DNA from: Escherichia phage T4
Sequence record: MZ375356.1
Strand: one strand, 5' to 3'
Length of the DNA: 64,000 nucleotides
Shown one piece after another: positions 1 through 42,348 of this stretch (the first letter of the stretch is position 1; the number at the start of each line of letters is the position of its first letter). The position numbers were made by a program, and so were the translations under genes. A model generated the notes under the pieces. It saw only the letters and a list, made by a program, of their open reading frames with translations. It had not been told where the DNA came from and made no database searches.

Positions 1-204
1 TTAATTCATATTACGCTTAATAACTTCAGCAACTTCTAGTAGTTCATCTTTAGTTGCGGTGTCGGATTGAATTTTATCTCTAATATCTTTAAAGCGGGTT
101 TTAAATTCTTCGGCTTCTCCCATATCGAAAAAGCGTTGAATGATTCTATATTCTCGATGAACTGCTTTATCAAAAAGTTCTAAATTTACTTTATATGATT
201 TCAT
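1..204 (-). CDS. small early protein, 67 aa (position of T4 rIIA.1)
   Basis: Complete ORF, stop at 1-3; GAGGA SD and early promoter upstream; identity by position only. Confidence 0.45.
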   Translation of the reverse strand: MKSYKVNLELFDKAVHREYRIIQRFFDMGEAEEFKTRFKDIRDKIQSDTATKDELLEVAEVIKRNMN

Positions 205-229
205 TTCAATATCCTCATTTGCCCAATTA

Positions 230-259
230 ATTATACCACATCCTTGTGGTAAAGTAAAC
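230..259 (-). promoter_or_regulatory. T4-type early promoter
   Basis: Minus strand reads GTTTAC-18 nt-TATAAT upstream of the ORF starting at 204. Confidence 0.6.
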
Positions 260-791
260 TACTGGCTCATCCATTCTTTACGAAGGTCAGCATTATCTCC
301 CATGAGCATTTCAAAAAGCTCTTTCCAGTTCTCAGGAAGTTTAACAACATCATATACTGGGTTTTGAATCATCTCACGATATTCAGATTTTTCCAAAGAG
401 CCAAGTCCCTTAATATAACGGATGCTATGTTTAGGTAGAGCATCTTTGGCACTCTCATATTCAGCGACTGTATAAAACCATTCTTGTTTTTTACCGACCT
501 GAGCGATGATTACAGGAGTTTTGACAAAGCGAATTCGTCCTTGCTCAAACAATTCTGGCCAATTACTAAAAAATCCGAGCAGAGAAGGATAAATAGAACC
601 TAATCCAATAATCTCTTAATTATGAGGTATTTCTATAGATAGCCCGAAGGCTATCCATCGTGATCTGCGTCTGTCATAATAGCGACATTCGCATAGTTCA
701 TTGAAGAGGATTTAATAGAACGACGAACATTGTTCTGCAATTTATATTTTTTCATATCAACGCTAGAAGAATCAATTTTTACAAATTTCAT
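259..791 (-). CDS. 60: DNA topoisomerase II small subunit gp60, two coding segments (654..791 and 259..606) joined across a coding gap
   Basis: N-segment MKFVKIDSS...IMTDADHDG (Toprim motif) ends at GGA followed by UAG; C-segment in same frame carries KGLGSLEKSEYREMI (GyrB C-terminal motif). Confidence 0.85.
604..656 (-). other. translational bypass (hop) element of gene 60
   Basis: Minus strand GAT GGA UAG CCUUCGGGCUAUC...AUUAUU GGA UUA: take-off GGA 654-656, stop 651-653, CUUCGG stem-loop, landing GGA 604-606. Confidence 0.8.
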
Positions 792-841
792 TATACACCT
801 CATAGAACTTTTCATCAGGAATCCAACCGCGTTTAAATTCA

Positions 842-1306
842 TTAAATGCTCGGCCGAATAATTTTGAAGCCTTTAATTCCAGGAAGCTTAACACCTTTAT
901 TAACACCGCACCATTCCTTTGGGTTAAATGATCCTTTAATTAATAAGGCGCATTTACCCGATTTAATACTTCTCATTAAAACTTTATCTTTCATAAAGTT
1001 TTTTGACCATTCAGATACTGCTCTTTGATGGTAAATTCTAGCAATTTCATATAATTTACTAGAACGTAAATATTTTTCAGTGTTTAACATTCTATTCATC
1101 GCATATGCCATTTCACGATTACGATGAATTTTATATAGTAGAAAATGTGCTAAAAAGTGTTCACGAAAAGTCAGTTTCACCAAATTTTCTTTATCATCAG
1201 AACCTCCCATTGATCTTGGAAGGATATGATGAATTTCACCCTTAAATTTAGAAACGCGGGTTTTACCCCGCACTATTAAGTCATTATAGATTTTTTCGTA
1301 ATTCAC
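842..1306 (-). CDS. mobA: HNH homing endonuclease-like protein between genes 39 and 60
   Basis: HHILPRSMGGSDDKENLVKL HNH motif; position matches T4 mobA. Confidence 0.6.
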   Translation of the reverse strand: MNYEKIYNDLIVRGKTRVSKFKGEIHHILPRSMGGSDDKENLVKLTFREHFLAHFLLYKIHRNREMAYAMNRMLNTEKYLRSSKLYEIARIYHQRAVSEWSKNFMKDKVLMRSIKSGKCALLIKGSFNPKEWCGVNKGVKLPGIKGFKIIRPSI

Positions 1307-2834
1307 CTACTGTTATCCATTTACCATTAATCTGTACTTCATCATTTTCATTTACGATAATTGTATCGCCATTTAGCTCGAAAGTAAACCACTCGCCATC
1401 TTCTTTTTCTTCAAACGCTTTTTCACCGAGAACTAGACCAGTGATTGCGCAAATATCAAATAGTTCTTTGTTTTTAAGCATATCTGCATAAGACATACCC
1501 CAACTGTTGAGAACTTTACCACGCAATGGATAACCACCGTGAAGTTCTTTATCACGAACATCAATAAGATATCCGATAGCCGAATCACCCTCAGTCAAGA
1601 AAAGAGTAGTATCAGCATCTTTACCGCAAAGATTCGCTTTGATATGTTTATGAACCTTAGCTTTAGAAGCCTTTTTAGCTGCTTTAGTTTCTGCTGCTTT
1701 TTCTGCCGCCAATTTACGAGCCAAAGCAGCTTCAATAATCGGCATTAGAATTGCTTCATTATTTAGAATAGCACGTGAAATCTTTTTAGCATCAAGTTGA
1801 ATATGACTACGAATTTCGCCAAATGGAGAAGTCAAACGCTCTTTAGTTTGAGAATCAAATCGCATGTTTTTCATATCACGAACAAACATAACGATAGTCA
1901 AACATTCTTTGACACGTGCTTTAGTCACATCAATTTTGAACTTACGTTTGATTTGTGGAATAAGGTCTTCACAAATATCATCCATAGCGCAGTCAATGTG
2001 ATGGCCACCATTCTTAGTATGAATGTTATTGACGTATGTTAATTGACGAAAACCATCCGGTGAACGACCAACCGCAATAGAACAATTTTCTTGCTCTTGA
2101 ACAATAGCATGTTCATCATACTGCCGTGCATATTTCTTAAAATTGCCCTGAACCTTTTTACCATTAAAGGTAAATTGAATATCAGGATAAACTACAGCAA
2201 GTGTCTGGAGACGATCCAGTGTAATGTCAAGATAAACTTGGGACAGCTCATTAGTTTCAAATGACATAAAATCAGGAATGAAAGTAACACGAGTTCCTTT
2301 CCATTTTCCAGGAATATCTTCCCATGATTTATTTTCCATGCCATTTGAACAACGAACTACAATATTATTTTGACCGTCGCCAGTTTCACCGACAAACATC
2401 ACAGAAAAAATGTTTGTCAAACTAGAACCAACACCGTTCATACCGCCGGTGACGCGTTCTTTATCATCACCAAAGTTACCACCTGCTTTTGGAATAGTCC
2501 ATGCGGCAACAGGACCAGGAATTTCTTCACCGGTAGGTGTTTTAACCATCGCTTGTGGAATACCGCGACCGTTATCTTCAACTGTTACTTGATTGTTTTT
2601 AATAGTAACATTAATTTTATTCGCGAATTTAAACTTAGTACGAATACCTTCATCTACTGAGTTATCGATAATTTCATCAATAAGCTTAACAAGACCAGGT
2701 ACATACTGAACACTTTCCCATTTACCAAACATAAAGCGCTCATGCGTTTCATTAGCAGAAGAGCCAATGTACATGCCACTACGCTTTTTGATATGTTCAA
2801 TATCGCTCAGAATTTTAATTTCATTCTTAATCAT
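1284..2834 (-). CDS. 39: DNA topoisomerase II large subunit (GyrB-like ATPase)
   Basis: 516 aa from ATG at 2834 (track ORF starts one GTG earlier); GHKL ATPase motifs VEDNGRGIP; SD GAGGA. Confidence 0.9.
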   Translation of the reverse strand: MIKNEIKILSDIEHIKKRSGMYIGSSANETHERFMFGKWESVQYVPGLVKLIDEIIDNSVDEGIRTKFKFANKINVTIKNNQVTVEDNGRGIPQAMVKTPTGEEIPGPVAAWTIPKAGGNFGDDKERVTGGMNGVGSSLTNIFSVMFVGETGDGQNNIVVRCSNGMENKSWEDIPGKWKGTRVTFIPDFMSFETNELSQVYLDITLDRLQTLAVVYPDIQFTFNGKKVQGNFKKYARQYDEHAIVQEQENCSIAVGRSPDGFRQLTYVNNIHTKNGGHHIDCAMDDICEDLIPQIKRKFKIDVTKARVKECLTIVMFVRDMKNMRFDSQTKERLTSPFGEIRSHIQLDAKKISRAILNNEAILMPIIEAALARKLAAEKAAETKAAKKASKAKVHKHIKANLCGKDADTTLFLTEGDSAIGYLIDVRDKELHGGYPLRGKVLNSWGMSYADMLKNKELFDICAITGLVLGEKAFEEKEDGEWFTFELNGDTIIVNENDEVQINGKWITVGELRKNL

Positions 2835-2886
2835 CACTTATCCTCGTTTGGTTTCGGGAATATTATACTCCGGTAATCATAAAGCT

Positions 2887-2905
2887 AAAGGCCCGAAGGC
2901 CTTTT
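2887..2905 (-). terminator. CUUCGG-type stable hairpin
   Basis: Transcript reads GGCCUUCGGGCC between upstream ORF and gene 39; possible MotA-box-like TTAGCTTTA plus TATAAT just downstream. Confidence 0.4.
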
Positions 2906-3122
2906 ATTTAAAACGAATAGTTGAATCCTTAAAGAACAGCCCAGAACATACTGTTCCTTCTACTTTCTGCCCGGTAGGTCCAATAGCACGAAATCCAGTA
3001 TGCTGGAAATCATTTTCAGAGCAACCGAACCAATTATATCCAGTGATTTCAATATTAGTAAAACCACTTGAAGACAAAACTTTGGTTGCATTATCAGCAT
3101 CAGTACATCCTATTAAAGACAC
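2904..3122 (-). CDS. hypothetical protein, 72 aa
   Basis: ORF track; no recognisable motif. Confidence 0.35.
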   Translation of the reverse strand: MSLIGCTDADNATKVLSSSGFTNIEITGYNWFGCSENDFQHTGFRAIGPTGQKVEGTVCSGLFFKDSTIRFK

Positions 3123-3164
3123 TGCTAATACTAATGCTGCAATAGAACGATTAATATTTCATAA

Positions 3165-3341
3165 TTACCCTTTAAGCAAGTCGTAAAATCCACCATTCAC
3201 ATGCTTAGGAGCGGAAACTAACCGAACAGCCAGCCGATGACAATCAGGACATACATCAGTATCTCTTTCAGAAATTTTCTTGATTTTTTCGTATTCTTTT
3301 GCACAGTCTTTGGATTGACATTTATAATCATAAAGCGGCAT
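3165..3341 (-). CDS. small zinc-ribbon protein, 58 aa
   Basis: MPLYDYKCQSKDC...DVCPDCHRL: C-x4-C ... C-x2-C; below ORF-track size cutoff; GGAG-like SD. Confidence 0.45.
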   Translation of the reverse strand: MPLYDYKCQSKDCAKEYEKIKKISERDTDVCPDCHRLAVRLVSAPKHVNGGFYDLLKG

Positions 3342-3343
3342 AA

Positions 3344-3769
3344 TTATTCCTTAAAGTAAGCTTTCAACATCTGATATAAAGACCACGCCTGATCATTATT
3401 TTCAATAGTAACTTTCATGACTGGGAATTCTGTGAAATCTTCTATTTGTTCTTGCTCTTTCTCTTCCTGCTCTTGCTCTTCAACCGCCTGATATGGATTT
3501 TCCACTTCATCAAAGAACCCAGCTTCGTTAGTAGAGAGCCAGATAAAGTTTTCGTCAAGGATATCACCGCCGGCACAACGTTTGAGTACACCTATGGATG
3601 TCATAATTTTAGTAGGACGCCCAAGATAATCAGCATCTAAAATTTTAAAAGGCTCCATACCTAAACGTCGTGCATAGATTCCGTTATCAGTATGGTCTTT
3701 AATAAAATTTTCTTGAGCTTGTTTATTTTTAAATTGATACCATTTATTAACTTCAAATTTAATAGCCAT
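3344..3769 (-). CDS. goF: goF-like protein, 141 aa
   Basis: Length and position downstream of 39 match T4 goF; acidic [12 protein letters not shown] tract. Confidence 0.45.
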
Positions 3770-17693: not shown

Positions 17694-18056
17694 TTAAAAG
17701 AATTTAAATTTTTTCTTTGACCTTTTATTAAATGCATCTTGCAGTTGCATTGTAATACATTTTTCTACATGAGGAGCTAACTCAGCTTTTCTTTCTTGGT
17801 CAAGAACAGCAAAGTCCATTACAACCTTTCCATCAACCCAATCCAGTTTAGTTACATACACTATATGCGTAGAACCATCTTCTAGTTTAATGACAATCTC
17901 CTGGATAACATTTTCCATAGCAGATTTAATTATCTTAAGAGACTCATTAAAAAGACGTTCTTTTCTTTCTTCTTCCCCCTCCGAAGAGGGGGATTCATCG
18001 ATAATTTCTAGATCTAAATCTAAATCATCTTTATTCATTAAATTCTTCCATATCAC
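17694..18056 (-). CDS. 40: gp40-position protein, 120 aa
   Basis: Located between uvsX and 41; acidic N-terminus. Confidence 0.5.
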   Translation of the reverse strand: MIWKNLMNKDDLDLDLEIIDESPSSEGEEERKERLFNESLKIIKSAMENVIQEIVIKLEDGSTHIVYVTKLDWVDGKVVMDFAVLDQERKAELAPHVEKCITMQLQDAFNKRSKKKFKFF

Positions 18057-19206
18057 TTAGCTGTTCGAGGTCAGTTTCTAAATCAGCAGCTGATTTACTT
18101 TTACTTTCTGGAGATTTAAATTTTTCAACCTTTGAGTTAATCAATTCATCAACTTCAGCTTCAACAATTTCATTACTATCAATAGCACCTAACTGATAAG
18201 CACGTTTAATAGCATCTCGGAATGGTTGATGCTTAAATAAAGGACCCCAGAATGTAGTGCAGTTGGTATCTTTTGCACGCCAAGATTTTTCTTCGCGAAT
18301 CATCTCGCCAGTTTCTTCGTCAAGAAATTCACGAGCATACCAGCCATTTTTAGGTTTTACCACGAATCCTAATTCTAGAGCCATATCTAACAATCCAGAA
18401 TAAGGATCGATACCACCGTCAAATTTAACATCAATAAAGAATTTACTTTTTTCTTTAACGGTACGAGATTTTTCTACATTTAGAACAAATTGATACCCCT
18501 GAAGATCAGAACCATCTTTAATCTGGCGTTTACCGATAATGAATACGGTATCAGCCGAATACATCGGTCCAGTACCACCTCCCATAACTGTTTTACTAAA
18601 CATTTCTTGTGTTTCGTATGTATGGTTAATAGCAATACATGGAATATTTTTAGTACTAAAATAGGGAGTTACGATACGAAATAAGCTTTTCATTGTTTTA
18701 GCTCTAGTCATATCACTAACAACTTTTTCATTTAAAGCATCTTCAGTTTCTTTCTTAGAAGCTAAGTTACCAAGTGAATCGATAAAAACGACTACCTTTT
18801 CGCCGCGTTCAATTGCATCCAATTGATTAACCATGTCAATACGTAATTGCTCAAGTGATTGAACCGGAGTATGAATTACTCGTTCTGGATCGACTCCCAT
18901 AGACCGCAAATAAGCAGGAGTAATACCAAATTCACTATCATAAAACAAACATACTGCATCAGGATATTGACGCATGTAAGATGACACCATTGTTAATCCA
19001 AAGTTTGATTTAAATGATTTTGATGGACCTGCCAAAATTAACAGACCAGATTGCATACCACCAGTAATTTCACCAGAAAGTGCAATATTCATCATAGGAA
19101 TTTTTGTTCGAACTACATCTTTTTCATTAAAGAATTTAGATGCTGTTAATTCTGCAGTCAATTTAGAAGTAGAAGCTTTAATCAAACGAGATTTTAAATC
19201 AGACAT
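18031..19206 (-). CDS. uvsX: UvsX recombinase (RecA-like)
   Basis: 391 aa from MSDLKSRLIKAS...; the open frame continues 68 codons upstream with no stop (track ORF 18031..19410). Confidence 0.85.
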   Translation of the reverse strand: MSDLKSRLIKASTSKLTAELTASKFFNEKDVVRTKIPMMNIALSGEITGGMQSGLLILAGPSKSFKSNFGLTMVSSYMRQYPDAVCLFYDSEFGITPAYLRSMGVDPERVIHTPVQSLEQLRIDMVNQLDAIERGEKVVVFIDSLGNLASKKETEDALNEKVVSDMTRAKTMKSLFRIVTPYFSTKNIPCIAINHTYETQEMFSKTVMGGGTGPMYSADTVFIIGKRQIKDGSDLQGYQFVLNVEKSRTVKEKSKFFIDVKFDGGIDPYSGLLDMALELGFVVKPKNGWYAREFLDEETGEMIREEKSWRAKDTNCTTFWGPLFKHQPFRDAIKRAYQLGAIDSNEIVEAEVDELINSKVEKFKSPESKSKSAADLETDLEQLSDMEEFNE

Positions 19207-19874
19207 ATAATACCTTAGTAGTGTTCTTGTTCCACGAAATACTTCGAGCATTCTTGCATAAGATTTATTTGGAAATCCAGCTTCAATTGCTAATTTTTTA
19301 AGCTTAATAGCACCGGGTTTTCCAGAGTTTTCCCATATTTCTTTAATCTTTTCAATGTTATCCCACATTATTGGGTCACGTTTATGTGATGGTTTATTTC
19401 TATTAACCATATGGATTATTAAGCAAAGCTTCTTTTCGTTTTGCTTTAGTTTCTTCTGACTGCTTTTTGCCTAGCTGGGCTTTCCGGCAAACATCACTAA
19501 ATCCAAGATGTTTTGGTTTTCCTTTTTGAGCTTTTGAAATTTTTTCTTTGGTTTCTGATGAAACTCTATAACCAATTCTTCTACCACCCTCTCCACCAAT
19601 TTTTAAATTATAAGTCATAGGATCATTTACCACATCTATTGTTACTAATTCTCTTTCAGCATCACGGGCTGATTTAAAATCTTTATAAAACCCAAGAATG
19701 CTTAAATTAAAATTTTTCTTACCATACTTTTTCTTGGCTTGTGCTAATAAAGTTCCTGATCCCATATAACCATCATTTAAATCATCGGTTGAATGAGTTC
19801 CATAGTAAATTTTATTATTAACTAAATTAGTTATAACATAAGTATAATTATTTCTTTTCTTTATGTCTTTTCAT
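19207..19874 (-). pseudogene. segA: GIY-YIG homing endonuclease-like gene (segA position), frame-disrupted
   Basis: ATG at 19874 gives MKRHKEKK*; next frame YVITNLVNNKIYYGTHSTDDLNDGYMGSG plus NUMOD-like SEETK repeats; C-terminal HTH-like segment lies in the uvsX frame. Confidence 0.55.
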
Positions 19875-20038
19875 GTCATTAATCAACTGCTATTCGATGA
19901 ACTTCTCTCTTTTCTAATCAATATAACAAAAGAAGTCCCAAAAAGCAAACAGACCTAAACCGATAATAAGCAATAAAGGTCCTAACATTTATTCCACCGG
20001 TTAAAGATAAATAACTTTCTAATAATAGTTCATAATTT

Positions 20039-21094
20039 TTATAAATCAATAGCTTTTTTGAACGCATCTTGCCATTCGGCTTTCTTTGCACGGGTTTTAT
20101 TTAAAATATCATGTTGAATAGAAAGCATCTCTTTACGCAAAACATCACTGTGTTTTAACTCATTGACTCTATCAATGAGTTCAGCACGATTATTTACATA
20201 AAAACGAGCATCATTAATAATTCGATGTTTGGTATCAAATTCTTCGTCAATTAGCATCACTGCATCAGATGCCATTGTTTCCCAGACGCGTAAGGTAATA
20301 AAGTTGTCATTATAATTCTTGTCACCAATAATTAATGCAGCAATAGCTTGACTATTCTTTTCAGATACCATGTTCATAGGAATTTTTCCAGTGAACACCG
20401 GAGCTTTGGTCCAAGGATATTTAGGATTTTTAAACTGTTTTTCTCGTGCATTGCCAAAAAACTCAATATTTAAACCGGTGTCAAATAAGAATTCTACCAT
20501 CTTGGATTCGCGTTGACCGGACCGAAATGAACCGCCATAAATAACATCCAAAGTTTTCTTGGTAGGCTTAGATAATTGAAAATCGTTCATATGAATTTTA
20601 TATTGTTCAATAGGAAAATATTCAAATTCAATAACATTATCAACTTTCTTATGCGCAGCCTTAGCAATGTCTAAATTTATACCTTGGGAAATCACTTTAA
20701 TTGGTGATTTAATTAATAGCTCTTCTTCAGTGTACAAATATGCCCATGGTCTATTTTTAACATTTGGCCAAGACTGCGAAAACGGCAAACGTATATCTGT
20801 AAATAAATAATAAATTTTACTTTTGTATTTTGCCATAAATTTTTGCGCAGATAAAATTGCTAAATTAGGTTTACCGCCAAAAAAGTTAATAGAAGAATTA
20901 ACAACTATCAAACGGTCATAATCATTAACATCTACTTCATCAAAAGATTTAGTGTAAACACCATTTTTAAGAGAAATAATGTCGACATTAAGACCCATTT
21001 CAGAAATAACTTTAAAAAGATAAATAGTTTCAGAAGATGGAACAGTTTTAAAATTAATAACATTATTACCCATATTAATTATAGCAATTTTCAT
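20039..21094 (-). CDS. bgt: DNA beta-glucosyltransferase
   Basis: 351 aa MKIAIINMGNNVINFK...; synteny between uvsX and 42. Confidence 0.85.
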   Translation of the reverse strand: MKIAIINMGNNVINFKTVPSSETIYLFKVISEMGLNVDIISLKNGVYTKSFDEVDVNDYDRLIVVNSSINFFGGKPNLAILSAQKFMAKYKSKIYYLFTDIRLPFSQSWPNVKNRPWAYLYTEEELLIKSPIKVISQGINLDIAKAAHKKVDNVIEFEYFPIEQYKIHMNDFQLSKPTKKTLDVIYGGSFRSGQRESKMVEFLFDTGLNIEFFGNAREKQFKNPKYPWTKAPVFTGKIPMNMVSEKNSQAIAALIIGDKNYNDNFITLRVWETMASDAVMLIDEEFDTKHRIINDARFYVNNRAELIDRVNELKHSDVLRKEMLSIQHDILNKTRAKKAEWQDAFKKAIDL

Positions 21095-21117
21095 ATTATT
21101 CCTTTTATGTTAAACGA

Positions 21118-21858
21118 TTAAGCGTATTTTCCTACATAATCTTTTTTCGAAATATGTGTTTCGCCAGTTTTCCACCAATGATCAACCAAATAAAAATGAC
21201 GAGAATACACATGTAGGCTTCCAACATTCCATATAATGGAACCTGCTTTATACTGGCGAGTTGAATCACCTGCATTCAAATCAGATACTAATTTATCTAA
21301 TACGTATTTTTGCCATGCATAATCATTACGGAATCCGAAGACCACGTCATTTGAGCGCATGTTAACAACCGCATTGATTTTCTTGTCACGAATCAGGTAT
21401 TGTACTGTATTCGTGCACATGAAATCTGACATACCATCTTTATTATAGTCAAACTGCATAGATGGACGAGTATAAATCATGATACCACGTCGAGAATCAG
21501 GATTTTGACCAAGTTCAGCTAAACACATGTCATACTGAGCATAGTTATCTTCTGACCAGATAGCCCAACCATAATTCGAGTTAATTTCACCTTTAGAAGA
21601 TGCTACTTGTTGCCAAATCTTCGGTGTTTCACCCGGAATATCTTTAACGAACAAGCTTTTAGATTTATACCATTCAAGTTCACGCTGAATGTATTCATCA
21701 TTAAGAGCGCCAAAAATAAACGGTTCATCTGCTACAAATGATGCGCCAATAATTTCAATAGTTTTAACACCTGTTTTATCAACTACGAAATCTTTTTCTT
21801 TTAATGCAAGCCCCAAATGAAGACGGATTTCTTCAACTGTCATAGAGTCACTAATCAT
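21118..21858 (-). CDS. 42: dCMP hydroxymethylase
   Basis: 246 aa; thymidylate-synthase-like fold motifs; synteny. Confidence 0.85.
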   Translation of the reverse strand: MISDSMTVEEIRLHLGLALKEKDFVVDKTGVKTIEIIGASFVADEPFIFGALNDEYIQRELEWYKSKSLFVKDIPGETPKIWQQVASSKGEINSNYGWAIWSEDNYAQYDMCLAELGQNPDSRRGIMIYTRPSMQFDYNKDGMSDFMCTNTVQYLIRDKKINAVVNMRSNDVVFGFRNDYAWQKYVLDKLVSDLNAGDSTRQYKAGSIIWNVGSLHVYSRHFYLVDHWWKTGETHISKKDYVGKYA

Positions 21859-21865
21859 TTAAACC

Positions 21866-22015
21866 TCAATTGATACATTCATATTTAACTTGTAACAGTA
21901 ATAAACTCCAACCTAAAATAATAGTTGGAATCATAAGAGGAACCGTTACACTATAGTATATACTTATTATAATCATCAAGATTAAAAGCAATGCTGCTAT
22001 AATTTTGCTTTTCAT
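21866..22015 (-). CDS. small membrane protein, 49 aa
   Basis: MKSKIIAALLLILMIIISIYY...; ATGA overlap with imm stop; below track cutoff. Confidence 0.35.
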   Translation of the reverse strand: MKSKIIAALLLILMIIISIYYSVTVPLMIPTIILGWSLLLLQVKYECIN

Positions 22016-22263
22016 TCCTTCTCTCTGATGATAATTACCTGATTTGGCTGCGCAGACTTTTTAGTTTCACCTGCAATTGACCAAATAAATGTAATAAACC
22101 AACCAATAATTGACCAGTTAAACAGTAAAGATGCGAAAAAGATTCCTACTGTCGATTTTGACCCACGCATCAAGGCGATAAACCATGGAAGCATGTATAT
22201 AATAATAGCCAACACGCCTGAAACTAAAACCATAAAAATTGAACCTGCTACTAAAGTTTCCAT
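22012..22263 (-). CDS. imm: immunity to superinfection membrane protein
   Basis: 83 aa with two hydrophobic helices. Confidence 0.8.
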   Translation of the reverse strand: METLVAGSIFMVLVSGVLAIIIYMLPWFIALMRGSKSTVGIFFASLLFNWSIIGWFITFIWSIAGETKKSAQPNQVIIIREKE

Positions 22264-22270
22264 GTTTTCC

Positions 22271-22651
22271 TCACTTAGTCAAATTTTTTACACATGAATT
22301 ATAAGAATTCACTACATACTCCATCGGAGCGTTTTTACCTGTACGCCACTGGTAATTATTAGCCCAATTTGCCCAAAGCTCAGCGCAGTAGTTTTCAATT
22401 TTTTCTTCGCGTGTAATTACATCTGAATTACGATATGCTTGAGCAGATTCATCTGGACGAATAGCTTCGTCAAAATTCGCCTGCATTTGTTCTACTGTCT
22501 GTTTTGGAGCTTCTTTATAACACTTGACATTAGGATTATAAAATTTGCTTGAACAGTTTACAATTTTTCCTACATCAGACTGATTTACTACCGGTCCTTG
22601 AGCTACACAACCAGCAAGACCTAATGCAATAACCAAAATAGCGATTTTCAT
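22271..22651 (-). CDS. putative lipoprotein, about 126 aa
   Basis: ATG MKIAILVIALGLAGC (lipobox) preceded by GGAG SD and early promoter; track ORF starts at an upstream TTG. Confidence 0.5.
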   Translation of the reverse strand: MKIAILVIALGLAGCVAQGPVVNQSDVGKIVNCSSKFYNPNVKCYKEAPKQTVEQMQANFDEAIRPDESAQAYRNSDVITREEKIENYCAELWANWANNYQWRTGKNAPMEYVVNSYNSCVKNLTK

Positions 22652-22688
22652 TTCATTCTCCAAATCCGTATCAGTAGTTGATAGTTGT

Positions 22689-22718
22689 ATAGTACCATGG
22701 AAGAACAGTCTTGTAAAC
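22689..22718 (-). promoter_or_regulatory. T4-type early promoter
   Basis: GTTTAC-18 nt-TACTAT followed by conserved ACAACTATCAACTACTGATAC leader. Confidence 0.6.
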
Positions 22719-22806
22719 AGTTTTGTGAAAAAATTTTTAGGGAATCCAAAGGGTCCAGAATCATCTCTTTTTCATAAGTATAGATTTATATTACTTGTAT
22801 GAAAAA

Positions 22807-22822
22807 GGGACCTGGAGGTCCC
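22807..22822 (-). terminator. stable hairpin after gene 43
   Basis: GGGACCUCCAGGUCCC immediately after the gene 43 stop. Confidence 0.45.
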
Positions 22823-22835
22823 TAGATTTATTCTA

Positions 22836-25532
22836 TCAGCCAAACAGGAAGTCTAACGAAGCTTTTTCTTCATAGTCCATGCCAGCCGATTCACACATAC
22901 CCGCAAGCGGTTTAACAAACGATTTTTGGAACAAAGTTGAGTGGTCAATCCAAGATAGCACATCAGAACGAATTTCTTTTGGAAGTTCTGTACCCGATGG
23001 CCAAGCAATGCACTTGTCACCAAATGGATTTCCTTCACGTAATGGAAGAACCATTACTTTATTTCCATCCAAAATTGGAGCTACACCTAAACCGCTAACA
23101 GCTCGACGATAAGTTAGCACACCACGAATATGGAACGGGCATTTAAATCCTGGCCAACCTTTATCATCATATTTCGCTATATCGTTCGCAGTTTTTACTT
23201 CAGCAATAACTTTATAGTCAAGTTGACGATATTCTTTCTCGAAGTTCTTGTAGTATTCTTGGACAGACTCTTCACCTTCCTGAAGAATACGACGAATACT
23301 TTCTTCGAGAGCTTCTTGCACTGCTTTTGGTGTTGAACTCTGCTGAGTTTCCATACCCATGATTTTTAGATGCGGTTCAGCAAATCGCTTATCTTCCATA
23401 TCATAAACGTTCAGAGCATAACGCTTTTTCGCTTTCCAAAATCCACCAACGCCCTTTGAACCAAGCGGAGGGCAAGAAATAGCTTCACGGTCCATATGCA
23501 TCAGATGCTCGCGGTTATTCATATAATCACATAACTCACGATATGCAACATCAATCATAGGTTCCATCTTTTTCTTACCGAACTGATTCATGAATTCAAC
23601 CAAATCGTTCTGCTCTTTGAATCGGTCAAGACCAACTTTTTCAATAACTTTATCTACGCAAACATATACCGAATCAGTATCACCTGCTGCAATGAAATCT
23701 TCATCATTAGTTCCGCATACTTTATTCAGATATTCATTAATTTTACGAGCAATCCACTGAATACCGACTTGGCCGAAAATTGTGATAGCAGTAGCATTTC
23801 GCAAATCATAGTAACGGAAATGAATATTACCAAGAGCACCATAAAGACTGTTAATGAGAATTTTACGGTTCAGCTGATTTGTATTAGCAAGTGTAGCTGC
23901 TTTTTCACATTCTTCAATCAGACTATTGAGAACAGATTCGGTGTAATTCGATAGTTCATTTAAGAAATCATCACTGAACTTAACATATCGTTCAACTTCT
24001 GGTTTAGTTGAACAAGACCCTGCGCCTTTCATAATAATCTTTTTAATAGCTTCGGCATTCATTTCTTCAGCGAACATTTTCTTTTTCCAGTCTTTACGCT
24101 GGAAAAATACTTTAGCGATTTCCTTTGGAATGATACCTTCTTGATGTTTATCATACATCCATCCATTCGGAGAACAAGAATATTCATCACTCGGTTTAGG
24201 AGCTGTTCCTGCGATATATTCATGAATTGGATGAACTTTAAACTGACCACGAATAGTTTCAGGACTAATGTTAACCTGGCGAATAATGCTCGGATACAGA
24301 GACGTCAAGTCAAAACTCATAATGTATCGACGTGCAATTGGTTTAGGTTCAAACACAAATGCACCCGGAAAACTCTGTTTAACGTGCGAACCTTGTTGAG
24401 GAATAACCTTATGTTCACCTTTCAATGAGTTAAAAATAATAGCATCCCAAGTTTTAATAGGACTCATTACACCAGAAAAAGGCATTTTAGCGTAATAAGA
24501 CATACTTAAAACTAGATCGATAAACCCACGAATTTTATCGATTGCTTGAACTGATTCTACGTCAATGATGTTATAACTAATGTATCGTTGATGATTAGTC
24601 TCACGAAGTTTATTAATAGGACCGTCGTATGGTAATTTACCTTTTTTGGTTTCATGTTGAGCAACTGATTCCAAAGAGAATGACGGCAAATTAGTAAAAG
24701 CGAATTTCTTGTACAAATCTAAATAATCAAGAATAGATACGCCATCAATAGAATAAATTTCTTTGCTACCGTACATATTTTGAATTAGTTTAGATTTTAC
24801 CCGACCGATTGGAGAGAAACGTTTCATACTACGTTCACCCAGAATCATTTTAACACGATTCATGATATACGGAACGTCAAACCCCTCAATATTCCAACCA
24901 GTAAAAATAGCAGGTCGTTTCTGTTCCCAAAGATTGATATATTCCATGAGCATATCACGCTCATTATCGAATGGCATATAAATTACTCGGTCAAGAATTT
25001 CTTGAGGAACTTCATCACCACCTTCACAGTCAAGCTTAGCAGCTAACTTTGCATCCCATTTTGATACTGAACCGTACATTGAATTCAAAAGGTCGAAAAC
25101 ATAAAAACGATCGTCAATTGAATCGTAATGAGTGATAGCATCAATTTCATATTCTGCTTTCATTGGGTCAGGAAATTTATCACCAGTAACCTCAATGTCA
25201 CAGTTAGCTACACGAACAAATTTTCGGTCATAAACAATTTCTGAACCATATGTATCACTTATATAAGCGAGTTTAAAATCGTTCATACCGAGAGCTTCGA
25301 GACCGATGTCTTCCATTCGCTTCATCCAATCTCGAGCATCTTTCATTGATGGAAATTTTTGAGGAGCGCAGTTTTTACCATAGATGTCTTTGTATTTTGA
25401 CTCTTCCTTACAATGCCTAAACATAGTTGGAAGATATTCTACTTCACGGGTACGTTCCTTTCCATTTTCATCAATATAACGTTCAACAATGTTATTTCCG
25501 ACTGTTTCAATAGAGATATAAAATTCTTTCAT
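22836..25532 (-). CDS. 43: DNA polymerase gp43 (family B)
   Basis: 898 aa; exonuclease and polymerase motifs incl. YGDTDS. Confidence 0.95.
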   Translation of the reverse strand: MKEFYISIETVGNNIVERYIDENGKERTREVEYLPTMFRHCKEESKYKDIYGKNCAPQKFPSMKDARDWMKRMEDIGLEALGMNDFKLAYISDTYGSEIVYDRKFVRVANCDIEVTGDKFPDPMKAEYEIDAITHYDSIDDRFYVFDLLNSMYGSVSKWDAKLAAKLDCEGGDEVPQEILDRVIYMPFDNERDMLMEYINLWEQKRPAIFTGWNIEGFDVPYIMNRVKMILGERSMKRFSPIGRVKSKLIQNMYGSKEIYSIDGVSILDYLDLYKKFAFTNLPSFSLESVAQHETKKGKLPYDGPINKLRETNHQRYISYNIIDVESVQAIDKIRGFIDLVLSMSYYAKMPFSGVMSPIKTWDAIIFNSLKGEHKVIPQQGSHVKQSFPGAFVFEPKPIARRYIMSFDLTSLYPSIIRQVNISPETIRGQFKVHPIHEYIAGTAPKPSDEYSCSPNGWMYDKHQEGIIPKEIAKVFFQRKDWKKKMFAEEMNAEAIKKIIMKGAGSCSTKPEVERYVKFSDDFLNELSNYTESVLNSLIEECEKAATLANTNQLNRKILINSLYGALGNIHFRYYDLRNATAITIFGQVGIQWIARKINEYLNKVCGTNDEDFIAAGDTDSVYVCVDKVIEKVGLDRFKEQNDLVEFMNQFGKKKMEPMIDVAYRELCDYMNNREHLMHMDREAISCPPLGSKGVGGFWKAKKRYALNVYDMEDKRFAEPHLKIMGMETQQSSTPKAVQEALEESIRRILQEGEESVQEYYKNFEKEYRQLDYKVIAEVKTANDIAKYDDKGWPGFKCPFHIRGVLTYRRAVSGLGVAPILDGNKVMVLPLREGNPFGDKCIAWPSGTELPKEIRSDVLSWIDHSTLFQKSFVKPLAGMCESAGMDYEEKASLDFLFG

Positions 25533-25590
25533 AGATATTCCTTAGTTTATAGCCCGAGTTATTAGGCTCTTGATATATTATACTCCAAAT

Positions 25591-25608
25591 AAGGGGCCGA
25601 AGCCCCTT
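25591..25608 (-). terminator. CUUCGG-type hairpin after regA
   Basis: Transcript AAGGGGCUUCGGCCCCUU. Confidence 0.45.
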
Positions 25609-25610
25609 GC

Positions 25611-25979
25611 TTAATTACCAATCGTATATTTAGGAACGAGCTTCCATTCATGTTTTTGTTTAAAAGAAATAACTCGGAAGTTATTAGTTAAATCTTTCAT
25701 AAAAGTTCTTTGACCAGGAACGATTTCAATTAGTCCCCAATCTTCTAATAGCCATGCAATCGAATCACGACGAACTTCATCTTCTTCTGTCATTTCAACT
25801 TGACGACCATCCATACGAAGCATTTCTTTAAAATGAACGATATAGTATAGTCCTTTTTTCTGAAGAATATGACAGGACTGATATAGAACTTTATCTTTAT
25901 TATTAGCAATTCCCATACGAGTCAAAGTTTCTTTTACTTTCAGAAAATCTTCAGGTTTTTTAAGAGTAATTTCAATCAT
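25611..25979 (-). CDS. regA: translational repressor RegA
   Basis: 122 aa MIEITLKKPEDFLKVKETLTRMGIANN... Confidence 0.85.
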   Translation of the reverse strand: MIEITLKKPEDFLKVKETLTRMGIANNKDKVLYQSCHILQKKGLYYIVHFKEMLRMDGRQVEMTEEDEVRRDSIAWLLEDWGLIEIVPGQRTFMKDLTNNFRVISFKQKHEWKLVPKYTIGN

Positions 25980-25980
25980 T

Positions 25981-26544
25981 TTACCATTCCAATGCTAGTT
26001 TTTTGAGTTGTTTCTGTTCTTTTACGTTCTTAGTCACTTCTTTCAAAAAATCATCCGTGACTAAACCTTTTAGTTCTTTTAATACTAAAGGAAGTTTTCC
26101 ATTTTTAGTAAGAATTGATTTATAGTTAATTGCATCATTTGTATTAACTTGATACCGCTTAGCAAGTAACTTAATAATCAATACTTCGGTGGAATCTTCA
26201 ACCAGTTTTGCCCATTTACCATATCTTTTACCACGAGGAACTGCAGCCATTAGATAATTAAAATGAGCTTCATCACTTAAGCCTGATCCAATTAAATTCA
26301 TAGCATATACAGCTGGCATACACTCTGGAAATTGTGATAATGCATTTTCAACCATGAATTTTGAATAATCTTTTTGAGCAATAGAGCATTTAGTTTTATT
26401 ATTAATAGCTCCAATTATTTCAAAAAATTCATTTTCTGCTTTTTCTTTAAAAGAATCAGCAGCGGATTGGACAGCTGTCCAATCTTTTGAATACCAAGCA
26501 ACTTGATGCTCGTTTAATTGAATATCATCTTTAAATAAGCTCAT
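25981..26544 (-). CDS. 62: clamp loader small subunit gp62
   Basis: 187 aa; synteny 45-44-62-regA. Confidence 0.85.
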
Positions 26545-26545
26545 A

Positions 26546-27505
26546 TCACTTCCACTGCATTTCGCATGCTAATTGAATGAAAAGATAAGCTAAATGCAAT
26601 TCAGTATTAGCTGCAATACCATGATACTGATTATTTTCGCCGACAATTTCGTACATACGAATAATACTTTGTGGAGTTACACGTGAATAGATTTCTTCGG
26701 CAAGTTTACCCACGAACCACGAATAATCAGCCGCATATTTTGGTGCTAAAGCTCTGAGTTGTTTAACATCTTTATTTTTGAGAGACTCAAGAACATCATC
26801 AATAGCACCACGATCGTTAGTAACCAGTGATAAAATACCAGCATCCAAAACACCTTTAGACGAATAACTATCGAGCTCGCCAATAGTTTTACGAAAATCA
26901 GGAAAATTCTTTTTAACCAAAGCTGCTACAACTTTCATATCAGCTATAGCAATTCCTTCATGCTTGCAGATTTCAGTCAATCGACGAATCATCTGCTTCA
27001 TCATTTCAATTTTATCTTCATCAGTTGGTTGACCGAATGTAATAACTCGGCAGCGTGACTGAAGCGGTTTAATAATACCATCAATATTATTAGCAGTAAT
27101 AATAATACTACAGTTTGAACTATAAGCTTCCATAAAGGAACGAAGATGTCGCTGAGACTCTGCTAACCCTGAACGGTCAAATTCATCAATAACGATTACT
27201 TTTTGACGACCATCAAATGAAGCGGCGCTGGCAAAATTAGTCAAAGGACCACGAACGAAATCAATTTTACAATCTGACCCATTCACAAACATCATATCAG
27301 CATTTACATCATGACATAATGCTTTTGCTACAGTTGTTTTACCTGTTCCTGGAGAAGGAGAATGAAGAATAATATGTGGAATCTTACCTTTACTTGTAAT
27401 AGATTTAAAGGTTTCTTTATCAAAGGCGGGAAGAATACATTCATCGATAGTAGATGGACGATATTTCTGTTCAAGAATGTGTTCTTTTTCATTTACAGTA
27501 ATCAT
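26546..27505 (-). CDS. 44: clamp loader ATPase subunit gp44 (AAA+)
   Basis: 319 aa from MITVNEKEH; Walker [11 protein letters not shown], Walker [12 protein letters not shown] motif. Confidence 0.9.
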
Positions 27506-27537
27506 AATTTCCTCATTCAAGTTTTAGTGTAAATTAT

Positions 27538-27553
27538 AAAGGGCCGAAGCCCT
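27538..27553 (-). terminator. CUUCGG-type hairpin after gene 45
   Basis: Transcript GGGCUUCGGCCC. Confidence 0.45.
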
Positions 27554-27556
27554 CTA

Positions 27557-28243
27557 TTAAAAATCGTGGGTAGAATCAGCTTCAAGAGCTACCACATAAT
27601 TCGCGTGTTCACCTTCAAATTTAGCAGCACCTTGTTTACCTTTTGCCCAAAGCAGAAGTTTATAATTTCCTGGTTGCATTTTCATATTTGCCATATTGAT
27701 AATGAAATTAAATGTATTTTCACCATCATAATCACCAAGAGTCAAAGAATATTTAACACGGGTCAGAGCAGAATCTTCTACTTTATTAAAACCGTTAATT
27801 ACGATTTTACCTTCTTTTACCGTGATAGCAATTGTATCAATTTGCAGACCACGAGATACACGCAACAGCTGTTGAAGGTCTTCAGCTTTAATTTCAGTAA
27901 CAGCAGATGCTACCGGGAATGGAATTGGTTTATTAGGAGCAACTACTGTACTCGGATCGGCTGCTGGCCAAAAAATTGTTGAGCGGGCATCAGCAATTTT
28001 AATATTTCCATCTTCTGACTGGGAAATTTCTGCATCATCATTAACTAAAGACAGAATACCGAGAAAACCGTTCAAATCGTAAATTGCTACATCAAAATCA
28101 ATAACGTCAGAAATATTTGCTTCCGCATAAGTTGTACCATTAACTGCGCGAGTCATAATAAATTGACCGGATTTAAGCATAATACCAGAGTTAATAGTAG
28201 CGAAATTTTTAAGCAGAGCAGTAGTATCTTTAGACAGTTTCAT
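27557..28243 (-). CDS. 45: sliding clamp gp45
   Basis: 228 aa MKLSKDTTALLKNFATINSGIMLKSG... Confidence 0.9.
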   Translation of the reverse strand: MKLSKDTTALLKNFATINSGIMLKSGQFIMTRAVNGTTYAEANISDVIDFDVAIYDLNGFLGILSLVNDDAEISQSEDGNIKIADARSTIFWPAADPSTVVAPNKPIPFPVASAVTEIKAEDLQQLLRVSRGLQIDTIAITVKEGKIVINGFNKVEDSALTRVKYSLTLGDYDGENTFNFIINMANMKMQPGNYKLLLWAKGKQGAAKFEGEHANYVVALEADSTHDF

Positions 28244-28298
28244 GTAATTTCCTTCAATTCAAATGAGATTTAATTTTATAACTAATTTAATAAAGCAA

Positions 28299-28688
28299 TT
28301 AACGATTAAAATCAGCCGCAATTGTTTCCGCAACAATTTGAGCAGCAACAATTAGACGTTCATCTGCATTACCGCAATAATCATCTTCAAGGCGTTCACC
28401 ACATGAAGTCATAATAAATTTAGCACCGGCGTTTAGGGATTCTGTAGTATGTTTGCGCATTAGTTCAATCCATTTATTACTTACTTCACGATCGATAGCT
28501 TCATAATACGCATGACGAGCAGGTGCAGATTTAATTTTGTTCTGAATAACTTCCATTGCGTTATCAGAAAGAGACAAAACCCATGCTCGACGAATTTTAT
28601 TTTGGTTTTGTGGATTTGATTCAGAACGCACGTGTTTTGGCTGAATATCTTTTACATCAACAGTATAATTCACAGTAATTTTAGTCAT
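28299..28688 (-). CDS. rpbA: RNA polymerase-binding protein RpbA
   Basis: 129 aa; position between 45 and 46. Confidence 0.7.
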
Positions 28689-28697
28689 AATACACCT

Positions 28698-28886
28698 TTA
28701 GTCATAATAATCAGTAACAGTCCAAGCTTCATTTCTATTGGACATTATTTTTGTATATTCTGCTTTAAATGCATTCCTAAGCATAGATTCAGTAACTATA
28801 TGCTCTTCATTAGAAAAATTATTTCTCAGAATATATCGTTTTATTTCAGGAATAGTTAATAGATGCTGTCCAGTTGAATATTCCAT
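28698..28886 (-). CDS. hypothetical protein, 62 aa
   Basis: ORF track. Confidence 0.4.
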   Translation of the reverse strand: MEYSTGQHLLTIPEIKRYILRNNFSNEEHIVTESMLRNAFKAEYTKIMSNRNEAWTVTDYYD

Positions 28887-28941
28887 GTTTTTCCTCCATA
28901 GAGATTATACTCTAATAAATTAAAGCATAATCTCTTATAAA

Positions 28942-30624
28942 TTAAACCATTACAGTAAATCGACCAACTTTCTTCATTTGAAGATGCTGACCATATTCTT
29001 GCGGGTCATGGTCTTTATGCGAAATTATAAAAACGTTAGTGTTTTTCATTGAATTTATAATATTAGCTACACCTTTAATACCTTCGGCATCAAATGACCC
29101 ATCAAACACTTCATCAAGAATTAATGTACTAATACTAACACCAGATACGATAGAAGCAATATCACGCCAAGTAAATAAAAGAGCAATATCGATTCGTGCC
29201 TTTTCACCTTCACTAAATGAAGCATAACTAAAATCTTCACGACCACGGGATTTAATTGTCTCATTAAATTCTTCATCTAATGTAAACACATAATCCGCTT
29301 CCATTATTTTAAGATAATGGTTAATCTGCTTATTAAATAATGGAATGTACTTTTTAATAATAGCACCTTTAATACCAGAATCTTTGAGCATATCAGTCAA
29401 AATTCCTCGGTGGTATTTTTCCATTACTAAATTAGTTTTTGTCTTAACAATTTTATCAAGTTCTTCTTGAAGCAGTGCTATTTCATCAGCATGGTCAATA
29501 AACTCAGAAGATGCTTTTTCTATAGCCGCTTTAACTTTTTTAGCTTTATCTACTGCTGCGATCAGAGATTGCTTTTTATTGCGAATATCATTTGCCAACG
29601 ACTGCTGGGTTTTAATATTATCTCGGTATTCATCAACAAGAACTTTTAAATTATCACGATGTGTTGAAAGCTGTTCAAACGAATGTGTGCATTCAGAAAC
29701 TTTATCTTTAATTTTAGAAACAACTTTATCACCGGAACTCAATTGTGACAAACAGGTTGGACATAATCCACCTTCGTGATACATATTAATGACTTTATTA
29801 TACGAGTCAATTTTTGATTTAATTAAAAATGCTTCTTGACCGATTTTATTAAATGCATCAGTCGGGTCTTCGTCCAAAACAATATTAACTAATCTTTCGT
29901 TAGCTTCTTCTATTTCCGATTTTAGCGTTCTAGCTTCTTTTGCCAAATCATCATACATATTTTGTAGACGAGTAAGGTTGTCACCCGTTAATTTTTTCTG
30001 GCGTTCAACATTATCATTATATATTTTAATTTGTTGGATAATACTATCTTTTTTAACATCAAGCACTTGGTTCTGCGAATTTAATTCACGTATTAGTGCT
30101 TTATTAAGCTTATCCATTTCAGCTAATGTTCCTACCTCAAGCAGGTCTTCCACAAGCTTTCTTCGCGCAGGGGTCGACAAACCCATGAAAGGGGTATACC
30201 CTGCTGTACCAAGGACAACAATCTGCTTGAAACTGGCATATGACATTCCGATAAGCTGTTCAAATTCTGCTTGGAAATCTTTACTGCTGGCAGATTCATT
30301 AAGACGTGTACCGTTAACGGTGATTTCGAAAACGTTTGGTTTTTGTCCTCTTTTGATATAGTACTTTTTCTCATCATATTCCATCCACAGTTCAACTAAA
30401 AGTTCTTTCTTATTTGTGCTGTTTATTAATTGACCTTTCTTTACATCGCGAAATGGCTTACCAAAAAGCCCAAATGTGATGGCTTCTAGCATAGTAGACT
30501 TACCACCGCCATTTCGTCCAGTAATAAGAGTTTTTTGAACCTTATCTAATTGAATGTCAATCCCATTTTGACCAACTGACATTATATTTTTATATTTTAC
30601 TCTATTAAGTTTAAAATTCTTCAC
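28942..30624 (-). CDS. 46: recombination nuclease ATPase subunit gp46 (Rad50/SbcC-like)
   Basis: 560 aa; Walker A GRNGGGKST; coiled-coil middle; signature/Walker B at C-terminus. Confidence 0.9.
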   Translation of the reverse strand: MKNFKLNRVKYKNIMSVGQNGIDIQLDKVQKTLITGRNGGGKSTMLEAITFGLFGKPFRDVKKGQLINSTNKKELLVELWMEYDEKKYYIKRGQKPNVFEITVNGTRLNESASSKDFQAEFEQLIGMSYASFKQIVVLGTAGYTPFMGLSTPARRKLVEDLLEVGTLAEMDKLNKALIRELNSQNQVLDVKKDSIIQQIKIYNDNVERQKKLTGDNLTRLQNMYDDLAKEARTLKSEIEEANERLVNIVLDEDPTDAFNKIGQEAFLIKSKIDSYNKVINMYHEGGLCPTCLSQLSSGDKVVSKIKDKVSECTHSFEQLSTHRDNLKVLVDEYRDNIKTQQSLANDIRNKKQSLIAAVDKAKKVKAAIEKASSEFIDHADEIALLQEELDKIVKTKTNLVMEKYHRGILTDMLKDSGIKGAIIKKYIPLFNKQINHYLKIMEADYVFTLDEEFNETIKSRGREDFSYASFSEGEKARIDIALLFTWRDIASIVSGVSISTLILDEVFDGSFDAEGIKGVANIINSMKNTNVFIISHKDHDPQEYGQHLQMKKVGRFTVMV

Positions 30625-30696
30625 AAAAGATTCCTTTTAATGTATCTTTTAGACCATTCTATCATATCATCATAATCTAAAAAGTATTCATCAAAT

Positions 30697-30882
30697 TCAG
30701 CCATGCAAACAACGCCTTGTGCTGTTTTTGATGTGATAAATTATTCCAACATATCTAGAATCTTCTTCGGTATAATCAATATTTGCTATGAATTCATCAT
30801 TAATGTCAAATGTCGAAAACTTCACAGTATGCATCCTTAATACAAGATACAGCCATATCTCGTAATGATTTAGGTGTGTCAT
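30697..30882 (-). CDS. hypothetical protein, 61 aa (overlaps next ORF)
   Basis: ORF track; 5' end overlaps 30806..31069 in another frame. Confidence 0.3.
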   Translation of the reverse strand: MTHLNHYEIWLYLVLRMHTVKFSTFDINDEFIANIDYTEEDSRYVGIIYHIKNSTRRCLHG

Positions 30883-31069
30883 TATCTAAAATGTTGAAGT
30901 TAAAAGATACAGCCCAGTCAGTGCAGACAGTAACCTTTTTAATACAATTATCTTCAACCTCTAACGGTTCAAACCAGTATTCAATAATTTCTTTATGACC
31001 AATATCATCTTTTACTTCACATTTAAAATGCTGACTCATCATAACATTTTTAAATTCATCAAAAGTCAT
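30806..31069 (-). CDS. hypothetical protein, 87 aa
   Basis: ORF track; ends inside a 7-bp tandem repeat. Confidence 0.45.
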   Translation of the reverse strand: MTFDEFKNVMMSQHFKCEVKDDIGHKEIIEYWFEPLEVEDNCIKKVTVCTDWAVSFNFNILDNDTPKSLRDMAVSCIKDAYCEVFDI

Positions 31070-32085: not shown

Positions 32086-32245
32086 ATATCAAGAACCGTC
32101 ATTGAAATGCAAAATAAAATTATTGAAATAAATCCATCTGGAGTGCTAAAGAACCCAATCCAACATGCTCTAGTGAATAGATAAAATGCAAGAAAAAGTA
32201 TCACATATCCAAGAAATATCATTATATCAAACTCCGTATAAAGCT

Positions 32246-32263
32246 AAAGGGCCGAAGCCCTTT
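32246..32263 (-). terminator. CUUCGG-type hairpin after alpha-gt
   Basis: Transcript AAAGGGCUUCGGCCCUUU. Confidence 0.45.
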
Positions 32264-33461: not shown

Positions 33462-33509
33462 AGTTTTCCTCTTTTCATTTAATAAATCATGTAAATAATA
33501 TTTTATTTT

Positions 33510-34292: not shown

Positions 34293-34325
34293 TTTAGTTT
34301 ATTTTACCAAAAAATTTATAAAGCA

Positions 34326-34345
34326 ATAGGAGCCGAAGCTCCTAT
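34326..34345 (-). terminator. CUUCGG-type hairpin
   Basis: Transcript AUAGGAGCUUCGGCUCCUAU. Confidence 0.4.
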
Positions 34346-34533
34346 CCACATAATACGCCATACAGAGGCTCGTTAGAACTTTTAAATTTTATGCGCTTAT
34401 ATGTTATAGTTCCTTCTGCTTTAGCTTTATCATGAGCCTCTTTAAAGCGTCTCATCATTTCCTCTCTAGAGGAACGAATTTTATTATAATCTATTTCAGA
34501 AGTCGGATGTTCATCTTTCACAGTTGCCACCAT
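34342..34533 (-). CDS. hypothetical protein, 63 aa
   Basis: ORF track. Confidence 0.35.
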   Translation of the reverse strand: MVATVKDEHPTSEIDYNKIRSSREEMMRRFKEAHDKAKAEGTITYKRIKFKSSNEPLYGVLCG

Positions 34534-35007: not shown

Positions 35008-35008
35008 A

Positions 35009-42219: not shown

Positions 42220-42288
42220 CAATAACGCTATTGAATGATTTGATATTCGTTACGAGTCATATTAATCTCCTCAGTAGAAAGTAAGAAC

Positions 42289-42318: not shown

Positions 42319-42348
42319 TAGTTCAGTGCATTTAGTGCATTGTTCAGT

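Follow-up and report, generated by a model that had tools for sequence, protein, structure and literature searches.

The window, the whole 64,000-nt stretch of Escherichia phage T4 DNA analysed here (sequence record MZ375356.1), carries, with near certainty, the translational hop cassette of T4 gene 60 within a MobA insert, in an arrangement where mobA has been truncated by a deletion and genes 39 and 60 and the hop itself are intact. Judged by its sequence, the element is the known programmed translational bypass cassette of T4 gene 60, and is neither a variant of it nor a new member. When compared with the T4 gene 60 bypass it is the same, base for base, across gene 60 and the sequence on either side (codons, UAG, stem-loops, GAG and nascent peptide), so that the bypass element is without any difference and only the adjoining mobA differs. 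Among cases of programmed translational bypassing, the gene 60 hop is the founding example; it has been studied genetically, kinetically and by cryo-EM.

Gene 60 and its bypass element

All parts of the gene 60 bypass can be read on the minus strand of the window, and their coordinates are given in Table 1. The take-off codon, GGA, encodes Gly46 and is codon 46 of the ORF that begins at ATG 791; it is directly followed by a TAG that is in frame with the same ATG. The landing codon is a matching GGA, read by the same tRNA, and is the sole GGA from the take-off site down to position 576. Decoding restarts at UUA 603-601, and after the landing codon the frame stays open for 114 codons, as far as the stop at 261-259. 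A preliminary description, made from the sequence, had listed a take-off GGA, an in-frame UAG, a CUUCGG stem-loop and a landing GGA, and all of these were found at 604-656. It had also given the untranslated gap as 47 nt, and the spacing between the take-off and landing codons is indeed exactly 47 nt (653-607), while a count from the UAG through the landing GGA returns the canonical coding gap of 50 nt, so the two figures (47 nt and the 50 nt of the literature) refer to the same gap. Stop codons are found in all three frames of the gap, including TAA 618-616 in the landing frame, which means that a single frameshift cannot yield gp60 and that a long hop is needed. The 19-nt core, GGATAGCCTTCGGGCTATC, has one occurrence in the 64-kb window with up to three mismatches allowed (none expected by chance). 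The stretch that holds the GAG mini-Shine-Dalgarno motif (633-607) is 78% A+U.

Table 1. Coordinates of gene 60, its bypass element and the adjoining genes in the window.
Feature	Position	Strand	Basis or remarks
Gene 60 segment 2, codons 47-160 and stop (LGSIYPSLLGFF...KEWMSQ*)	259..603	-	Toprim C-terminal region; Pfam TOPRIM_C
MobA mobile-element insert, relative to unsplit topoisomerase gene	595..1416	-	822 nt; alignment with T2 Topo2L
50-nt coding gap, UAG through landing GGA	604..653	-	T4T annotation at identical position
Landing codon GGA	604..606	-	Sequence reading
Shine-Dalgarno-like GAG	613..615	-	6 nt (AUUAUU) 5' of landing codon
Take-off stem-loop, 10-bp stem and UUCG tetraloop	635..658	-	Predicted fold; take-off GGA and UAG in 5' arm
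In-frame TAG	651..653	-	Sequence reading
Take-off codon GGA	654..656	-	Sequence reading
Gene 60 segment 1, codons 1-46 (MKFVKIDSSSVDMKKYKLQNNVRRSIKSSSMNYANVAIMTDADHDG)	654..791	-	Nascent-peptide signal ending at take-off codon
HomR, insert-encoded copy of the topoisomerase segment deleted on insertion	655..700	-	76% identity, T2 nt 1427-1472
Predicted 5' stem-loop (UGCG..UGUCG......UGACA..CGCA)	666..693	-	MFE and centroid of 146-nt context; local fold
Shine-Dalgarno GAGG of gene 60	801..804	-	9 nt ahead of ATG; spared by mobA deletion
Truncated mobA ORF, GTG start, 154 codons	842..1306	-	Overlaps 3' end of gene 39 by 23 nt
284-bp deletion junction	868..869	.	T4T 3068-3351; mobA nt 439-722, codons 147-241
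Gene 39, topoisomerase II large subunit N-terminal part, 516 codons and stop	1284..2834	-	Pfam HATPase_c, DNA_gyraseB; 100% identical to T4T gene 39

The tip of the predicted take-off hairpin is CCUUCGGG (CC-UUCG-GG), and the bases that follow the TAG, CCTTCGGGCTATC, pair with GGATAG. The 21-nt core folds as an 8-bp UUCG hairpin of -12.2 kcal/mol (z = -4.9), with none of 200 shuffled sequences folding as well, and the stem reaches 10 bp (658-635) when folded in a longer context. The T4 literature describes a 5' stem-loop for gene 60, and a 5' stem-loop is also predicted here (Table 1). Downstream of the landing codon, local folds gave two hairpins, one at 606-587 that is weak and, within a fold of -13.6 kcal/mol, a stronger one at about 581-542. 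These two hairpins were considered as a barrier against forward slippage, but neither could be matched to the published structure and neither is counted here as part of the element. Rfam has no family for bypass RNA, and a scan of positions 1-3000 (E ≤ 1) returned two chance-level matches only, with no intron or other family.

In the nascent peptide, the residues listed in the literature as implicated in bypassing (Y16, Q19, V22, R24, S25, K27, S28, Y33, M39, T40 and H44) are all at their expected positions, and the 46-aa peptide is identical to chain C of PDB 5np6. The hop-joined product of 160 aa is identical to residues 517-676 of chain C of PDB 8yo3, one of several T4 topoisomerase II structures that contain it; 8yo3 is a recombinant gp39-gp60 fusion and so represents the sequence that researchers take as gp60, not an independent proof of hopping. 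The T4 tRNA cluster is also intact in the window (53706-55055, minus strand, 8 genes), and includes a tRNA-Gly(UCC) at 54816-54889 that reads the GGA codons of take-off and landing, and a tRNA-Leu(UAA) at 54895-54981 that reads the UUA codon at which decoding resumes.

Alignment to T4 gene 60, proposed in the preliminary description as a check, gave 100% identity, with no divergence in the take-off codon, landing codon or stem-loop. Window positions 1-868 and 869-3153 are 100% identical to T4T, without differences, and to other T4 records, and for positions 230-1330 the records of T4, T4T, RB55 and RB59, and other T4 records, all match at 100% identity. The T4T record labels the same 50 nt as the 'non-coding translational bypass region' of gene 60, and the neighbors at its locus are rIIA.1, 60, mobA and 39. 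The cassette was detected in 53 of 50,697 phage records, which include about 41 T4-like phages and also Proteus, Salmonella S16-like and Shewanella phages, where the copies are 75-81% identical. Its presence in phages beyond the T4-like group has already been described (Manning & Atkins preprint). The cassette had been taken as a T4 hallmark that places the phage very close to T4; the closeness is borne out by the 100% identity of the flanks, but the cassette by itself does not identify T4, while the identity of its flanks does.

The MobA insert and the split topoisomerase gene

In phage T2, the topoisomerase large subunit (Topo2L) is encoded by a single gene of 606 codons, and this was used as the alignment partner for the window. 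The two sequences share 96% identity up to window position 1417 (T2 nt 1418), where the match ends. It returns at T2 nt 1483 (window 594), and segment 2 of gene 60 is 99% identical to T2 nt 1483-1818. The last 43 codons of gene 39 (1416-1287, FEEKEDGEW...LRKNL) fall within the insert, which thus encodes a C-terminal extension of gp39. The insert also carries HomR, for which identities of 67-81% have been reported, and which holds the nick site of MobA (Manning & Atkins preprint). The insert measures 822 nt, or 1106 nt when the 284 bases deleted from mobA (see later) are added back, and the restored length agrees with the published size range of the MobA element, 1097-1106 nt (Manning & Atkins preprint).

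Within Topo2L, the cassette is sited at the D/G of the Toprim motif DADHDG. Across the junction, gp60 as joined by the hop reads ...NYANVAIMTDADHDG/LGSIYPSLLGFF... and the uninterrupted T2 protein reads ...NYHNIAIMTDADHDGLGSIYPSLLGFF..., and the join of G46 to L47 recreates the sequence IMTDADHDG-LGSIYPSLL, which is continuous in the unsplit T2 gene. This comparison repeats, for the window, the classic case for the two segments being parts of one protein. Two further points of the preliminary description are upheld by the T2 alignment: the gp60 segments are in frame across the hop, as the restored topoisomerase motif indicates, and the endonuclease gene lies in an insert between the gene 39 and gene 60 parts, in the arrangement thought to have split the topoisomerase subunit. 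From the sequence, then, the bypass cassette is placed inside a MobA mobile insert that splits the gene for the topoisomerase large subunit into 39 and 60.

The unsplit form of the gene is the common one, with about 490 T4-like phages matching the topoisomerase parts only, over a span of about 1821 bp and as one gene, while the version containing mobA was present in only 41 records. Clade 1 of the MobA elements (T4-like Tequatrovirus) is a grouping of Bonocora et al. 2011 and Manning & Atkins 2022. Compared to the clade 1 elements of T4T, RB55, RB59 and HY01, that of the window is inserted at the same site in Topo2L, gives gp39 the same 43-aa C-terminal extension and gp60 the same N-terminal extension, has the same HomR and bypass and, with the deletion restored, measures the same 1106 nt. 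It differs from them in the endonuclease ORF, which retains 146 native codons instead of 272, by way of a 284-bp frame-shifting deletion.

The mobA deletion and the lesions of the window genome

The HNH mobA-like gene that had been noted between 39 and 60 is present as an HNH-motif ORF (842-1306), but it is a truncated remnant of 154 codons, compared to 272 for the intact gene. It consists of 146 native codons, which include the HNH motif (aa 24-43), followed by 8 out-of-frame codons (FKIIRPSI) and a stop. The MobA protein of T4T has 272 aa, and the remnant, at 154 aa with 146 native, falls short of the full-length MobA size of 269-279 aa. The indexed protein collections contain no copy of the 154-aa form. 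PHROG 655 ('homing endonuclease') matches the truncated ORF with E = 1.4e-49 over aa 1-124 only, and T4T MobA over aa 1-265. The Pfam HNH domain scored 21.1 bits on the remnant (E = 3.4e-4), just below the cutoff of 21.4; a Pfam Gp6_C-III match of MobA was further below its own cutoff (21.1 vs 27 bits), and was disregarded. The C-terminal 126 residues are either removed or garbled and the HNH motif is kept, and the predicted protein has probably lost the homing function of MobA.

The two pieces of T4 sequence that match this region span 1385 bp for a query of 1101 bp, and direct alignment confirmed that 284 bp are missing in the window. The ends of the deletion share zero microhomology. It begins at base 1 of the '60.1' start codon (ATG), as that ORF is annotated in the reference T4 record, and its other end falls 77 nt short of the ATG of gene 60; it touches nothing that the translation or bypassing of gene 60 needs. 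The 868/869 junction occurs in none of the 41 phage records that contain the region. In the reference T4 record (AF158101.6, 2150-5450), mobA is annotated as a pseudogene along with a separate '60.1' ORF (2971-3351) that is the 3' part of mobA, and the locus is 11 bp longer than that of T4T (1396 vs 1385 bp), with 98.7% identity. What the window keeps of mobA matches the intact T4T type, so the parent phage carried a complete mobA ORF prior to the deletion. AF158101, KARL1 and Aes012 have a degraded or lost endonuclease and, like the window, all keep the bypass without an intact MobA; however, the defect in AF158101 consists of small insertions relative to T4T, whereas the window has a single clean deletion inside the gene, which no deposited record shares.

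The window corresponds to T4 from coordinate 2200 onward and carries many lesions relative to T4T. Junctions of large deletions or rearrangements lie near 868/869, 5190, 8880, 38400, 41225/41226, 46885, 51405 and 53016, and the large deletions affect mobA (284 bp), motB.2, modA/modB, nrdG-mobC-nrdD (including the I-TevII intron), nrdC.3, nrdC.11-mobD and vs.3-denV, with a further loss after T4T 67703. The ipII/ipIII area is rearranged: positions 51403-51832 are 92.6% identical to the upstream region of T4T ipII, and overlap a perfect match to the ipIII upstream region, which is consistent with the loss of ipIII by recombination between similar leader/upstream sequences of internal-protein genes. 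At position 7601 there is a 9-bp tandem duplication (GTAGATATT) relative to T4T 10561, which is in frame and lies within dda (helicase).

The nearest record to the window is OL964745.1 ('Mutant Escherichia phage T4 clone T4_7t1', 159,752 bp), which has the same starting base. Fifty lesions are common to both, 52 are found in the window only and 17 in T4_7t1 only, a distribution that indicates sibling clones. The common lesions include the large-deletion junctions in motB.2 and nrdC.3 but, unlike the window, T4_7t1 has intact mobA and modA/modB. Iterative, Cas9-based reduction of the T4 genome (CiPGr) was described by Yuan et al. 2022, who used templates with 2 x 50-bp homology to delete whole annotated genes, followed the 168,903-bp T4 reference annotation, and also saw undesigned large deletions and accumulated mutations. 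The lesion pattern of the window (T4 backbone, gene deletions, large deletions, accumulated mutations) fits that of CiPGr mutants. The window is not wild T4 but a laboratory mutant, engineered or evolved, with a reduced genome, and it probably stems from a Cas9-based genome-reduction experiment.

From its position, the loss of 284 bp from mobA was most likely designed, as a template-directed deletion of ORF '60.1'. It begins on the ATG base of that ORF without microhomology, and the nrdC.3 deletion is alike in both respects, starting exactly at an annotated start codon. Could the 284 bp instead have been lost spontaneously, as a natural loss of the endonuclease and not by engineering? Pseudogenised or partly deleted MobA with the bypass kept is known in nature, from the laboratory T4 reference, KARL1 and Aes012 (Manning & Atkins preprint), and the other large deletions in the window have 4-17 bp of microhomology, as is typical of spontaneous events. 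A spontaneous origin is nevertheless quite unlikely for mobA, where microhomology is zero and the deletion, as in nrdC.3, meets the first base of the start codon; moreover, its flanks are 100% T4, its junction is in 0 of 41 records, and the nearest relative is labelled a mutant clone.

Besides the large lesions, there are about 90 deletions of 1-4 bp (window 3154-52923), 65 of which are exactly 2 bp and mostly AT or TA, with few substitutions. Examples are seen at 33569-34326 in mobB and at 41323-42611 in nrdC.4/5, and some of these small deletions destroy start codons (soc, dam and modA.2). They are nearly always found in an A/T tetranucleotide, and 55 of the 90 drop one unit of a short tandem repeat. 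None occur in T4T 17789-23557 and 24419-35083, which hold replication genes (about 16 kb), or in the 39-mobA-60 block. A simple explanation of the small deletions as scars of SpCas9 cutting was rejected, with 28% found within 1 nt of a cut site compared to 23% of random positions (a test with little power for PAM-distal protospacer positions), and 35 of the 90 having no cut site within 12 nt. They could be either a real mutational signature or a consensus artefact, and it is rather doubtful that they are real products of an undescribed T4 mutational process acting during long Cas9/recombineering passage.

Predicted translation across the gap and its implications

We infer that bypassing operates in the window genome, from its identity with T4 and from the lesion-free state of genes 39 and 60 and the gap in a genome that has about 100 lesions. 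The mechanism has been established in the literature for this exact sequence, and is applied to the window by sequence identity. Ribosomes would translate codons 1-46 of gene 60, at which point the nascent peptide in the exit tunnel, the slowly decoded UAG in the A site and the UUCG hairpin at the take-off site would together cause the peptidyl-tRNA-Gly to detach from GGA 656-654 but remain bound to the ribosome, which would then slide 50 nt without decoding, aided by the 5' stem-loop refolding behind it, and about half of the ribosomes would finish the hop to give gp60 at full length. For the DNA itself, the 50-nt insert would shield the carrier genome from nicking by MobA, an enzyme that nicks unsplit topoisomerase genes in the region equivalent to HomR, with the cassette being copied in (Manning & Atkins preprint).

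A very different outcome would be that gene 60 is broken, with the UAG ending a 46-aa peptide and the downstream part being unmade or made by re-initiation. The automatic annotation of OL964745 has separate CDS at 259-552 and 651-791, the ORF list includes a TTG-started ORF of 97 aa at 259-552, and about half of the ribosomes are described in the literature as terminating at the UAG, all of which would be in line with a broken gene. The sequence is, however, identical to that of T4, for which the only bypass product found by mass spectrometry in vivo lands at the landing GGA; segment 2 is open from the exact landing codon, and its start has no AUG or start preceded by a Shine-Dalgarno; the join recreates the DADHDG-LGS of the Toprim motif; and none of the roughly 100 lesions of the genome falls in the region. 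Taken with these points, a broken gene 60 is highly improbable. Removal of the 50 nt from the RNA by splicing is the least probable of all and can practically be discounted, for while T4 has self-splicing group I introns elsewhere (the nrdD intron region being deleted in the window), the Rfam scan described above gave no intron and 50 nt is far below the size of a group I or II intron. The 50 nt are reportedly retained in the mRNA, which also counts against splicing.

Bypassing by ribosomes also occurs in the mitochondria of Magnusiomyces capitatus, where the inserts ('byp', 27-55 nt) share with the gene 60 hop the use of matched codons and of a poorly decoded codon after take-off. They differ from it in being unrelated in sequence, in belonging to another translation system, in being present in many copies per genome, and in having no link to an HNH homing endonuclease.

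The practical use of the analysis is for annotation. A single CDS that joins 791-654 to 603-259 is the proper entry for gene 60, in place of two ORFs, and the ORF between 39 and 60 should be entered as a truncated mobA; the annotation of gene 60 as two CDS in OL964745 misses the hop. Other odd features of the window are best judged with the origin of the sequence in mind, as that of an engineered, genome-reduced T4.

The element itself is already known, and its rediscovery in a T4-derived sequence adds nothing new; the retention of bypassing alongside a degraded endonuclease is likewise already known from nature. The sole unique item is the 868/869 junction, which is most likely man-made. If the small deletions were real, the lesion-free state of genes 39 and 60 and of the hop, together with the loss of mobA, would be direct evidence that selection keeps the hop independently of the endonuclease. 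A small point of natural history is that most of mobA can be lost from a viable reduced T4 with the bypass left untouched.
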